NCBI GenBank assembly: GCA_965204375.1
Contig: OZ241986.1
Span: forward strand, 1,600,001 to 1,664,000
Direction of reading: 5' to 3'
DNA from: Candidatus Latescibacterota bacterium
GTDB lineage: Bacteria > Latescibacterota > UBA2968
Length of the DNA: 64,000 bases
A program made the translations under genes and the position numbers. This document shows, piece after piece, positions 47,082 through 51,001 of this stretch. How positions within the stretch are numbered: position 1 is the stretch's first letter; every line of letters begins with the position of its first letter. The notes under the pieces were generated by a model. It searched no databases and was not told where the DNA came from. It was given only the letters and a program-made list of their open reading frames with translations.

Positions 47082-47132
47082 TATTATCATATGTGCCCCT
47101 GTAGCTCAGAGGATAGAGTAGCGGATTCCTAA

Positions 47133-49576
47133 GTGCGCCGCTTCACGGTAGGAGTTCCTACCCAGTAACTGGGTATGAGTTGCAGGATAACTCGTAGATT
47201 AACCGATTCACTGAAATCTGAAAGGAGGAAGGGAAAACAGCATATCGGTAAAGCTGGTGGACAGGACAACCACAAAGAATGTCGCACTGGCAAAATCTGT
47301 ATCCTATGATTAAGGCTAAACTGCTTGAACCTCAACAACCAGTGGGAGAAAACCCGCCTCCTCTTGGAAATGTGGTTGACACCAAGACCTCACAAGATTC
47401 TGAAAGGATTAGGAGTTCAGAATACCTGACAACGTGGGCACGACTTGCAGAGAGCGAGTATAAGGTAGTGAATGAGGAATCTAAGGGATACTAAACGGAA
47501 CTCAGACACGGAAAGCGGGAATACCTAAGTGTCGAGAGACATAAGGTATCGGAGCCTCCGTAGTAGTCAGAGAACGGGAAAGCCGTTTACAAGGCGAAGG
47601 GAGGCAGGTAAGTTCGACTGTAAGGACAAGGAGGGATGCGTAATGCAAACAGCCAAAACTGTTCTTGAGGTCATCCATCGAAGGGGAATGGAAGGTAAAA
47701 CGCTTGAAAGGCTTTACAGGCAATTGTTCAACGAAGAGATATACCTGAAAGCGTATGCGGAAATCTACTCAAACAAGGGTGGATTAACCAGAGGTATTAG
47801 TAAAGAAACGATTGATGCAATGTCAGTTAAACGTATTCATAGCATCATAAAACGTCTCCGAACTGAAACATACCGATGGAAACCAACACGCCGAGAGTAT
47901 ATCCCAAAAAAGGACGGCAAAAAGAGACCACTTGGAATCCTCTCTGGGGACGACAAGATACTCCAAGCTGTTCTTAAAACCCTGCTTGAAGCCTATTATG
48001 AACCGCAATTCAGTGACCGCAGTCACGGATATAGACCGAATAGAGGCTGCCACACAGCACTTCAACAAATTGGTAGAAAACACCATACGGTCAGTTGGTT
48101 CATAGAGGCAGATATAAGAGGCTGCTTTGATAACATCGACCACGACATCTTAATTGATATACTGAGCGATAAAATCAAAGACGGAAGGTTTATACGACTT
48201 CTCAAACATCTTATGAAAGCAGGATATGTTGAAGATTGGAAATGGCATAAGACATATAGCGGAACACCGCAAGGTGGCATCATAAGCCCGCTTCTGTCAA
48301 ACATCTACCTGAACGAATTAGATATATGGGCAGAGAAAGAACTTATGCCAGAATACAATCGTAAGCCAAAAAGCGGTAGGAAGAAAATGAACCCTGAATA
48401 TAAGCGATATGCCTATAAAAGAGGCAACGCCAAAAAGCAGGGCGACTGGAAATCCTACAAACATTACGGAAATCTGATGAAATCACTTCCAACAACGATA
48501 GAAGATGATAACTACCGAAAATTGGAATATATCAGATACGCCGATGACTTTCTGTTAAGTTTCGCTGGCCCTAAAAAGGAAGCTAACGAAATCAAAGAGA
48601 AGATCAGGAATTTTCTCAAGGATAGATTAAGACTTGACCTATCATTGGAAAAAATCCTAATCACTCACGCCAGAACCAAAAAAGCCAAATTCCTGGGATA
48701 CGATCTGCGAGTCAGACAATCACGGGAAAGGCGAGTAGCAAATGGATCAATATGGTTCGGGACACCAACAGAGAGCAAGTTGAGAGCCATAAAGAAATAT
48801 AGGGAGAAAAACAAGGCGAAAGTAAGATTTGAACTGGTCGAACTGAGTGACTATGATATAGTAACGCAGTATCAATCAGAATACAGAGGTCTTGCGAACT
48901 TCTACGTAATGGCTCACAACAGACATACCTTAAACAAAGTAAGGTGGGAAGCGGAAAAATCCCTAATACGGACACTTGCAAGAAAGCACCGAACATCGGT
49001 CAAAAAAACCTATATAAAATATAGGGGCAAGATGAACGGTCATGCGGTGATAAAGGTGCAAGTAGAAAGAGAAGGGAAAGACCCACTAACCACATACTTT
49101 GGAGGAATTTCCCTGAAGAGAAACCCATACGTAAAGTCTATAAAAGACGAGTACACGAACAATTGGATCAAAAGAAGTCAGCTTATAGAGAGACTACTGG
49201 TAGACCAATGTGAAATGTGCGGACAAGTGGGGAATATCGAAGTCCATCACGTAAGAAAGCTAAAAGATGTGAACATACCGGGAAAGAGGAACAAACCCGC
49301 TTGGGTGCATCGAATGGCAGCTATCAGACGTAAAACTCTGATGACCTGCGTAAAATGTCATAAGGCAATACACGCAGGTAAACACCTTACGGAATGGGAT
49401 GTATGGAAGAACTTACTGGAGAGCCGTGTGCATTGAAAGGTGCAAGCACGGTTCGGAGGGAGGGTGCAGGAAAAGTGACCTAAATCCGTTTTGGTTTGAC
49501 TACGATGGAGCTAATATAGCTCTCTAGTGGACAACCAAAACGGCATTAGGTCAAACTCGCTTGCTCCCTACCCTAC
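47133..49576 (+). mobile_element. Group IIA intron (LtrA/ML-like), 2,444 nt
   Basis: 5' GTGCG; domain V GAGCCGTGTGCATTGAAAGGTGCAAGCACGGTTC (49421-49454); 3' end CCCTACCCTAC with branch A at -7 (49570); EBS1 hairpin 47397-47423. Confidence 0.95.
47643..49436 (+). CDS. ltrA: Intron-encoded reverse transcriptase/maturase with HNH endonuclease (597 aa)
   Basis: SD AAGGAGG; KRPLGI, FIEADIRGCFDNI, GTPQGGIISPLLSNIYL, YIRYADD, FLGY; C-terminal CEMC...EVHH...CVKCH. Confidence 0.95.
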   Translation: MQTAKTVLEVIHRRGMEGKTLERLYRQLFNEEIYLKAYAEIYSNKGGLTRGISKETIDAMSVKRIHSIIKRLRTETYRWKPTRREYIPKKDGKKRPLGILSGDDKILQAVLKTLLEAYYEPQFSDRSHGYRPNRGCHTALQQIGRKHHTVSWFIEADIRGCFDNIDHDILIDILSDKIKDGRFIRLLKHLMKAGYVEDWKWHKTYSGTPQGGIISPLLSNIYLNELDIWAEKELMPEYNRKPKSGRKKMNPEYKRYAYKRGNAKKQGDWKSYKHYGNLMKSLPTTIEDDNYRKLEYIRYADDFLLSFAGPKKEANEIKEKIRNFLKDRLRLDLSLEKILITHARTKKAKFLGYDLRVRQSRERRVANGSIWFGTPTESKLRAIKKYREKNKAKVRFELVELSDYDIVTQYQSEYRGLANFYVMAHNRHTLNKVRWEAEKSLIRTLARKHRTSVKKTYIKYRGKMNGHAVIKVQVEREGKDPLTTYFGGISLKRNPYVKSIKDEYTNNWIKRSQLIERLLVDQCEMCGQVGNIEVHHVRKLKDVNIPGKRNKPAWVHRMAAIRRKTLMTCVKCHKAIHAGKHLTEWDVWKNLLESRVH

Positions 49577-49615
49577 TCCGTTGGTCGCAGGTTCGAGTCC
49601 TGCCAGGGGCACTTT

Positions 49616-51001
49616 GAGGTATATTCAAAAGTTGTGGATGAGTAAAAGAAAAGAGCGTATCCTATAGTATCACAAAAACCTAAAATCCCTCCAGGAGGGA
49701 GAAAGGACACGCTCGTGAAAGAATATACCCCATTTGAAGTGGAAAGCATAGTGCAAGATACACTGGCCGAGAGCCTCGAAGAAGTCATAAGAAATGGTGC
49801 GCGTAAGATGTTATGTGCCGCCTTGCGGTATGAAGTGAATGAATACATAGCCCGATTTGCTGATCAGGTGGATGAAAAGGGTCATCGTGAGGTGGTCAAA
49901 AATGGGTATCATCCTGCCCGAGAAGTCACCACTGGTATTGGTAAAATACCCGTCAAACAACCCCGCGTTCACGATCGTCGAGACGGGGAGCACTTCACCA
50001 GTGCGATCCTGCCTAAATATGCCCGTCGCAGTCCGAGCATTGATACATTGATCCCCACACTGTATCTGAAAGGGGTCTCTACCTCAGCCTTTCCCCAGGC
50101 ACTCGAAGCGATCCTCGGCAAAGGCGCACCAGGGCTTTCACCAGCCAATATCACGCGCTTAAAGCGTATTTGGGAAGACGAGTATAAACAATGGCAAAAG
50201 CGCGACTTGCACGATAAAGCCTATGTCTATATCTGGGCAGACGGTATCTATTTTAACGTACGCCTGTCTGATGATCGCCCCTGTGTTCTCGTGCTCATTG
50301 GTGCCACAGCAGAAGGTAAAAAGGAAGTCCTTGCCATAGAGCAGGGACAGCGTGAGAGCACCTTATCTTGGAAAACCCTCTTACTGGATGTCAAAGCACG
50401 CGGGTTGCGCCTTGCCCCTGCTCTTGCCATAGGCGATGGGGCAATGGGCTTCTGGCACGCATTGGAAGAGACATTCCCTGCCACGAAACATCAGCGCTGC
50501 TGAGTGCATAAGAGTGCTAATGTGTTGGATAAGCTACCCAAATCTGTGCAGCCGGATGCCAAGAGACTCCTTCAAGATATGTATCAGTCGCCGACAAAAG
50601 AGGCCGCGCACAAGGTCTATGACCACTTCTTGAGTCTGTATCAGGATCGCTATGAAAAAGCCTGTGACTGCCTCACCAAAGATTTTGAGGTGCTCTTCAC
50701 CTTTTATGATTTTCCTGCCAAACACTGGATCCATTTACGCACCACCAACCCGATTGAATCGACTTTTGCTACCGTCAGGCATCGCACGAGGCAGACAAAA
50801 GGCTGCGGATCGGTCAAAGCCACAATGGCGATGGTGTATAAACTGGCTCTTGAAGCTGAAAAAACATGGGTCAGATTACGCGGTTACAAGCTCATACCCC
50901 TCGTCATTGACGGGGTGAAATTCGTAGATGGTGAACGCAAAATCGCTGCATAATCATAAAGGATGCGTTCTAAACCCATCCACAACATTTGACAATATCT
51001 C
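49616..51001 (+). mobile_element. IS256-family insertion sequence, 1,386 bp
   Basis: 28-bp imperfect TIRs (GAGGTATATTCAAAAGTTGTGGATGAGT vs rc GAGATATTGTCAAATGTTGTGGATGGGT); 9-bp direct repeats GGGCACTTT at 49607-49615 and 51002-51010. Confidence 0.93.
49715..50953 (+). pseudogene. IS256 transposase with one in-frame stop (TGA 50501-50503)
   Basis: KNGY, PRVHDRR, LYLKGVST, YIWADG, IGDGAMGFW, QRC*VHK (family motif QRCWVHK), RTTNPIES; both halves in one frame. Confidence 0.9.

Follow-up and report, generated by a model that had tools for sequence, protein, structure and literature searches.

Ll.LtrB of Lactococcus lactis, a group II intron of class IIA whose intron-encoded protein (IEP) is LtrA, pairs with its target from position -12 to +2 (PMC2435150). 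In targetrons, which are retargeted versions of Ll.LtrB, the specificity is altered via the exon-binding sites EBS2 and EBS1 and via delta (PMC2435150, PMC8643678). Most bacterial group II introns are located outside housekeeping genes (PMC4424553), and bacterial tRNA introns are described as group I, with a review table naming no bacterial group II case (PMC4033280). In the accessible portions of the literature searched, which included PMC4033280, PMC4424553, PMC8919778, PMC8450103, PMC4853749 and PMC7938551, no group II intron in a bacterial tRNA gene was found; subscription papers and supplements were not covered, so the absence is unproven. In plastids, a IIA intron that encodes a maturase-type protein, MatK, lies in the tRNA gene trnK (PMC4424553, PMC13578239). 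Here we analysed a stretch of 64,000 nucleotides (nt) from Candidatus Latescibacterota bacterium (contig OZ241986.1, positions 1,600,001 to 1,664,000; hereafter the window), in which a group II intron splits a tRNA-Arg(CCU) gene. Based on sequence comparison, we propose that two loops of this intron are the exon-binding sites of an LtrA-like mobile IIA intron with the tRNA-Arg(CCU) anticodon arm as its cognate site, and we assign this reading a probability of roughly 85%. Both loops had been noticed in a preliminary description of the sequence, whose observation as a whole is confirmed and whose interpretation is supported in part.

Proposed exon-binding loops of the tRNA-Arg(CCU) intron

The intron comprises 2444 nt on the plus strand (47133-49576) and lies between nt 38 and 39 of the tRNA-Arg(CCT) gene, that is, between the last nucleotide of the anticodon loop and the first nucleotide of the 3' strand of the stem. 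It starts with GTGCG at 47133, directly after ...GCGGATTCCTAA, the last letters of the 5' exon (at 47132), and ends with ...CCCTAC at 49576, directly before TCCGTTGG; the 3' exon opens with TCCGTT at 49577. The 5' exon (47095-47132, plus strand; ARAGORN) provides tRNA nt 1-38 with the anticodon loop at its end, and contains the intron-binding sites IBS2 (exon -12 to -9) and IBS1 (exon -6 to -1). The 3' exon (49577-49612, plus strand; ARAGORN and orthologues) provides nt 39 to the end of the tRNA, with delta' at +1 to +3. ARAGORN called no tRNA in the unspliced 64-kb window. When the exons were ligated by script (47132/49577), it returned a 74-nt tRNA-Arg(cct), and in intron mode it reported the same tRNA gene with i(39,2444), i.e. 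a 2444-nt intron at position 39.

The first of the two loops belongs to a hairpin at 47397-47423 (plus strand), which consists of ATTCTGAA, the 11-nt loop AGGATTAGGAG and TTCAGAAT, forms an 8-bp stem without mismatch and is supported by minimum free energy and consensus folds and by covariation. EBS1 (47409-47415, plus strand) comprises TTAGGA (47409-47414), which is Watson-Crick complementary to exon positions -6 to -1, and G47415, which forms a wobble pair with T-7 (tRNA nt 32). The complementary exon positions correspond to tRNA nt 33-38 and include the anticodon CCT (34-36). The delta sequence GGA (47406-47408, plus strand) complements exon +3 to +1, i.e. tRNA nt 41-39 on the 3' strand of the anticodon stem, with no pair between A47405 and G+4. 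Within the 2444 nt of the intron, the 9-mer that complements the exon junction is found a single time, at 47406, and it was present anywhere in 87 of 5000 mononucleotide shuffles (1.7%). When the entire intron was scanned for EBS1(6) plus delta(3) pairing, the top score of 18 was reached solely at 47409, with a runner-up of 13. The hairpin and its pairing with the exon junction, both pointed out in the preliminary description, are thus borne out by direct reading and by a unique top-scoring site. Since IBS1 is tRNA nt 33-38, the intron would indeed 'read the anticodon', as had been stated there.

The second loop is part of a hairpin at 47344-47362 (plus strand), seen in consensus folds, in which GGGAG (47344-47348) and CTCCT (47358-47362) close the terminal loop AAAACCCGC (47349-47357). 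Its core CCGC (47354-47357, plus strand) complements by direct reading GCGG at -12 to -9, which is tRNA nt 27-30 on the 5' strand of the anticodon stem. A further match to IBS2, CCGCT, is found at intron nt 6-10. EBS2, EBS1 and delta together pair with exon -12 to -9, -7 to -1 and +1 to +3, i.e. with the anticodon loop and with the stem on either side of it, so that the anticodon arm is wholly covered by pairings save A31.

This arrangement suggests how the intron might handle its structured exons. In the precursor, EBS2 CCGC would pair with tRNA nt 27-30, EBS1 TTAGGA plus the G-U pair with nt 32/33-38, anticodon included, and delta GGA, directly upstream of EBS1, with nt 39-41; the three pairings would align both splice sites at the catalytic core. 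Made with DNA, the same pairings would guide retrohoming to tRNA-Arg(CCU) genes that lack the intron. As IBS2 forms one strand of the anticodon stem and delta' the other, the stem would have to be open for splicing and would re-form only after exon ligation, which might help product release. We infer both splicing and homing of the window intron.

The 5' part of the intron is homologous to the 5' parts of related introns, and its 3' part matches the Rfam family RF00029 (domains V and VI) at 49419-49576 with 60.5 bits (cut-off 40). According to the Rfam alignment, domain V (49421-49454, plus strand) measures 34 nt and carries the AGC triad, and domain VI (49455-49576, plus strand) has a long insertion, a bulged branch A at 49570 and the 3' end ...AC. 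The group II hallmarks, i.e. 5' GTGCG, the AGC triad of domain V, the bulged A of domain VI and 3' AC, are all present. Domains V and VI together take up 158 nt, compared to 89-100 nt in the relatives scanned, because of the insertion in domain VI, an imperfect inverted repeat at 49476-49553. The list of open reading frames (ORFs) places the stop codon of the IEP at 49434-49436, and the ORF thus ends 16 nt into domain V.

The IEP (597 aa; 47643-49436, plus strand) contains a reverse transcriptase (RT), a maturase and an HNH endonuclease (Pfam RVT_1, Intron_maturas2 and AI2M-like_HNH). In a phmmer search against the PDB, its best solved relative was LtrA (5g2x; E 4.6e-117, residues 5-576), whereas IIB and IIC RTs reached about 1e-33 to 1e-39 at best and over the RT part only. 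The position of EBS2 in a terminal hairpin loop, as obtained in consensus folds, is the IIA arrangement by a criterion given in PMC8643678, and, as in other IIA introns, the 3' exon is read by delta directly 5' of EBS1, with at least +1 being paired in 20 of 22 relatives. We class the window intron as an LtrA-like (mitochondrial-like, IIA) group II intron of presumably mobile type. That the hairpin at 47397-47423 is the EBS1/delta loop of a IIA-type intron, as previously suggested, agrees with the LtrA-like IEP, the homology of the loop and the covariation of its stem. Among the 54 arginine codons of the IEP are 23 AGA and 11 AGG, the latter being the codon of the interrupted tRNA.

Related introns and a second tRNA host gene

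For comparison we used 80 loci encoding IEP homologues of 38-66% identity, mostly from Chloroflexota metagenome-assembled genomes (MAGs), in which the 5' intron end was mapped in 44 and the 3' end in 32 cases. Rfam was used to place the 3' ends because nhmmer with the 3' 143 nt of the intron gave only six weak matches. When the first 420 nt of 35 relatives were aligned with MAFFT, the two loops of the window intron aligned with loops of intron-specific sequence that complement the respective introns' own 5' exons at -6 to -1 and at about -12 to -8. In L006, for example, TGAAGG pairs with CCTTCA and CTTGC with GCAAG, and L003, L015, L049, L051 and L061 are alike. The EBS1 stem covaries as well: in an ungapped, EBS1-anchored alignment of 21 selected sequences, 83.3% of 168 cells were paired, compared to 55.9% in shuffles (none of 500 reached the observed value) and 28.6-36.3% in slid registers, and two-sided changes occurred in 8 of 8 pairs. 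RNAalifold, applied to the 90-nt region, missed the EBS1 hairpin, which insertions in L003 and L071 had put out of register; the EBS1-anchored alignment was used instead. In the EBS2 stem, UA, UG, GC and AU were all seen at the pair of alignment columns 10/22. The call of a 4-nt EBS2 rests on its homology to the EBS2 loops of the relatives, which pair with their exons from -12/-13 to -7/-9. Together with the terminal-loop position in the folds, this covariation argues for the second loop being EBS2, which the preliminary description had put forward as a candidate. The homologue alignment that it had named as a check thus turned out positive for both loops and for the EBS1 stem, and the assignment of the two loops as putative exon-binding sites is well supported by comparative data.

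Outside the pairings, none of the target positions conserved across 27 distinct sites is one that the window shares. The window site has G-21 and A-20, the same as the Ll.LtrB site (PMC8643678), from which we draw no conclusion, and a tblastn search of the IEP against plasmids gave no Lactococcus record among the 40 matches listed. In some Dehalococcoidia MAGs (L009, L010 and L035), a related intron begins directly after ...CCTATCCTAC, the 3' end of another copy, which amounts to tandem or nested introns. Many Dehalococcoidia relatives, including L006, L012, L037, L042 and L043, share a conserved site, ...GGCACCGGCAAGACCTTCA, which encodes a GxGKTF motif resembling a P-loop. This housekeeping-type homing site, which is found across MAGs, is matched by their EBS1 and EBS2, and several of these introns measure 2.8-3.3 kb versus the 2.4-kb norm.

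A second intron within a tRNA gene is present in L245 (metagenome contig, 90-2819). This related group II intron (124-2696; RF00029, 66.3 bits) encodes an IEP that is 46% identical to that of the window, and its exons ligate to an 86-nt tRNA-Leu(taa), with the intron located between anticodon nt 34 and 35. The best EBS1 plus delta site, at intron nt 284, is situated in the 11-nt loop of a 7-bp hairpin and forms five EBS1 pairs and three delta pairs with the junction. In addition, the intron holds an intact second tRNA-Leu(taa) with CCA (647-734), which lies between the 5' domains of the ribozyme and the start of the IEP (778). IBS1 and delta' of this spare tRNA are identical to those of the host gene; -7 and -8 differ. 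The L245 intron may bring a replacement for the tRNA that it splits. A quick IEP tree of 139 distinct sequences (FastTree, rooted at the midpoint) puts the window in a pair with L003 (support 0.996), and the smallest clade with both the window and L245 has 125 leaves; therefore, the two tRNA-resident introns are not sisters.

Among the 32 relatives with both ends mapped, none has exons that ligate to a tRNA, and a search for related loci with the L245 IEP yielded no close relative (at most 52% identity, partial, outside tRNA). ARAGORN in intron mode on the loci of 160 relatives found the window, which served as control, and missed L245; an opposite-strand call inside L026, made again in L299, was taken as spurious. 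A blastn-short comparison of 236 candidate 5' flanks with the tRNAs of this genome gave 11-12-nt matches only and was discarded as too insensitive, since L245 was missed here as well. Because of these misses, the counts of tRNA-resident relatives are lower bounds. The proposal that EBS1 changes could retarget related introns to other tRNA isoacceptors accordingly has one natural example, L245 in tRNA-Leu(UAA) with matching loops, and is supported to this extent.

The 3-nt delta-delta' contact had been regarded as an unusual extension, which did not hold up. For the 22 distinct relatives in which EBS1 matched well (kin, so that the figures are not independent), contiguous delta pairs numbered 0 in two, 1 in four, 2 in nine, 3 in three and 4 in four introns; at least two pairs are thus formed in 16 and at least three in 7 of the 22. 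With swapped 3' exons (n = 448), at least two pairs were obtained in 21% and three in 12%. According to PMC8643678, delta-delta' occasionally extends over two or three positions, and the pairing of Ll.LtrB runs to +2 (PMC2435150). Three delta pairs are normal for this intron lineage. One might still regard the 3-bp contact as an adaptation to tRNA targets, the longer delta keeping the anticodon stem melted: both tRNA-resident introns form exactly three delta pairs, and delta' and IBS2 are by direct reading the two strands of the stem. However, relatives in protein genes have an equal or longer delta, and two cases cannot establish a trend, which makes such an adaptation unlikely.

Genome context and condition of the locus

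The genome (6.34 Mb, one contig) contains 50 other tRNAs and no second tRNA-Arg(CCT), and every other C34 reader listed is kept. The intron is its sole group II intron, both by DNA match and by RF00029. In the 40 related genomes searched, the exon halves match adjacent DNA, and none has an intron in tRNA-Arg(CCT). In all ten same-genus loci examined, the tRNA-Arg(cct) is intact, follows the same phosphoribosyltransferase gene and has an identical anticodon arm, and two of these tRNAs (L089 and L090) are identical throughout to the ligated 74-nt tRNA. An intron-less allele of the same site, matching EBS2, EBS1 and delta, thus exists. From the intact same-genus loci and the 40 intron-less genomes it follows that the insertion is recent, and the empty site matches all three binding sites. 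In another genome of the genus (G016, L084), in which tRNA-Arg(CCT) is intact, two chromosomal stretches are 66% identical to intron nt 325-1119, a segment that includes part of domain I and extends over the initial part of the IEP ORF.

Downstream of the split gene, an IS256-like (Mutator family) transposase element (49613-50953) starts within a few bases of the tRNA 3' end and occupies the place of a T-rich tail at orthologous loci. Its 45-nt end has at least five further copies in the genome, and a stop at 50501-50503 divides its transposase into two ORFs.

Between 0.74 and 1.0 of the words of the stretch are present in DNA runs of several studies that are labelled as sponge or coral metagenomes. 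In X4, a run of another study, one contig spans 47103-48191 with 2 differences and a second spans 48174-49606 with 1, and the intron allele recurs there at about 99.9% identity; besides X4, 12 further runs hold at least 0.74 of the words. Three RNA libraries gave contigs over parts of the intron, one of which (582 nt) begins exactly at 47133. As these contigs show neither ends nor transcription, they were not used as evidence, and the uncovered parts carry no meaning. The exact junction 14-mer was present in at least 119 stretches of genome contigs; none of the 11 with the most similar context was a tRNA, and the hits were set aside as chance matches. The junction 19-mer had no match in metagenome contigs.

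Several observations speak against the proposed role of the two loops and against an active intron. EBS2 forms only 4 bp, followed by a C47353/A-8 mismatch, and is not significant alone. The 21 sequences of the covariation analysis were picked for having EBS1 at the expected place, 11 others were excluded, and the rows are kin. tRNA-Arg(UCU) is present and could read AGG, so that the split gene may be dispensable. With a single intron copy and the IS256-like element abutting the 3' end of the tRNA, the locus could be decaying. The X4 contigs include 30 exon letters on each side, one below the 31-letter bridging criterion. Finally, a contig of the RNA run X17 with the exact 47132/49577 join was rejected as evidence of splicing: its flanks are unlike those of the window and resemble those of intron-less relatives, and it therefore stems from an intron-less relative rather than from a spliced product.

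Such points would fit a dead-end insertion, in which the tRNA-Arg(CCU) gene has in effect become a pseudogene, tRNA-Arg(UCU) serves AGG codons and the complementarity is no more than a footprint of insertion rather than a working interaction. The RNA-run contigs without evidence of splicing, the single intron copy, the IS256-like element in place of the orthologues' T-rich tail, the presence of tRNA-Arg(tct) and the lack of the intron in tRNA-Arg(CCT) of all 40 searched relatives agree with this scenario. Yet the exons are identical to intact orthologues, the 597-aa ORF is open with all three domains, domains V and VI, the branch A and GTGCG are intact, and 13 of 13 Watson-Crick pairs are retained. 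Moreover, the allele recurs in the run of another study at about 99.9% identity, with 12 more runs holding at least 0.74 of the words, and every other C34 tRNA is kept. By sequence, both the ribozyme and the ORF are intact and ligation exactly restores the orthologous tRNA, and we consider a dead end distinctly improbable. That the complementarity arose by chance and the hairpin is not an exon-binding site can be dismissed, as nothing but the short EBS2 would favour it, and the unique top-scoring site, a 9-mer found in only 1.7% of shuffles and the covarying loops at homologous positions in the relatives contradict it.

Comparison with known systems

With the two loops read as exon-binding sites directed at the anticodon arm, the pairing scheme is textbook IIA recognition and adds no new mechanism. 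What is unusual is the host gene, together with a second, independent tRNA-resident relative: in a 6.3-Mb genome, the one tRNA-Arg(CCU) gene is occupied by a complete intron of mobile type, and tRNA-Leu(UAA) is occupied by a relative that is not its sister. If active, these introns would provide a tractable bacterial model of the way in which a group II ribozyme copes with a highly structured exon, a model for a possible origin of plastid tRNA introns, and one for conserved tRNA anticodon arms as portable homing sites. Going further, we tentatively suggest, with somewhat less than even confidence, that bacterial tRNA anticodon arms have become homing sites of LtrA-like mobile IIA introns more than once, in tRNA-Arg(CCU) at 38/39 and, in L245, in tRNA-Leu(UAA) at 34/35, where the spare tRNA in domain IV could compensate. 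Such introns might then represent an extant bacterial equivalent of the group II introns in plastid tRNA genes, and also a case in which the exon-binding sites have to melt a tRNA stem and re-formation of the stem after ligation would release the product and block reverse splicing.

The window intron resembles Ll.LtrB in that the IEP has equal length and domain order, with LtrA as best solved match, EBS2 lies in a terminal loop, and EBS1 lies in a hairpin loop in which it directly follows delta. The pairing spans -12 to +3, compared to -12 to +2 in Ll.LtrB (PMC2435150). It differs from Ll.LtrB by its 3-nt delta, the 4-bp EBS2, the ORF reaching 16 nt into domain V and the enlarged domain VI. 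Furthermore, the host of Ll.LtrB is a relaxase mRNA, whereas here it is a tRNA, and the exon partner is itself a stem-loop. Targetrons change specificity through the same three elements and are engineered; the window intron versus L245 would be the natural equivalent.

The group I tRNA introns of cyanobacteria and alpha- and beta-proteobacteria are similar in being a self-splicing class, in residing in the anticodon loop and in having a guide that pairs with the loop, but belong to another ribozyme class with another mobility mechanism. The plastid trnK intron shares the IIA class, the tRNA host gene and the maturase-type protein with the window intron, and because a IIA intron lies inside a tRNA gene in either case, the exon-binding sites must pair with the tRNA body. 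Plastid tRNA introns, however, are organellar and immobile, and MatK lacks RT motifs 0-4 (PMC4424553), whereas the window intron has a bacterial host, a complete RT-X-En protein and a recent insertion.

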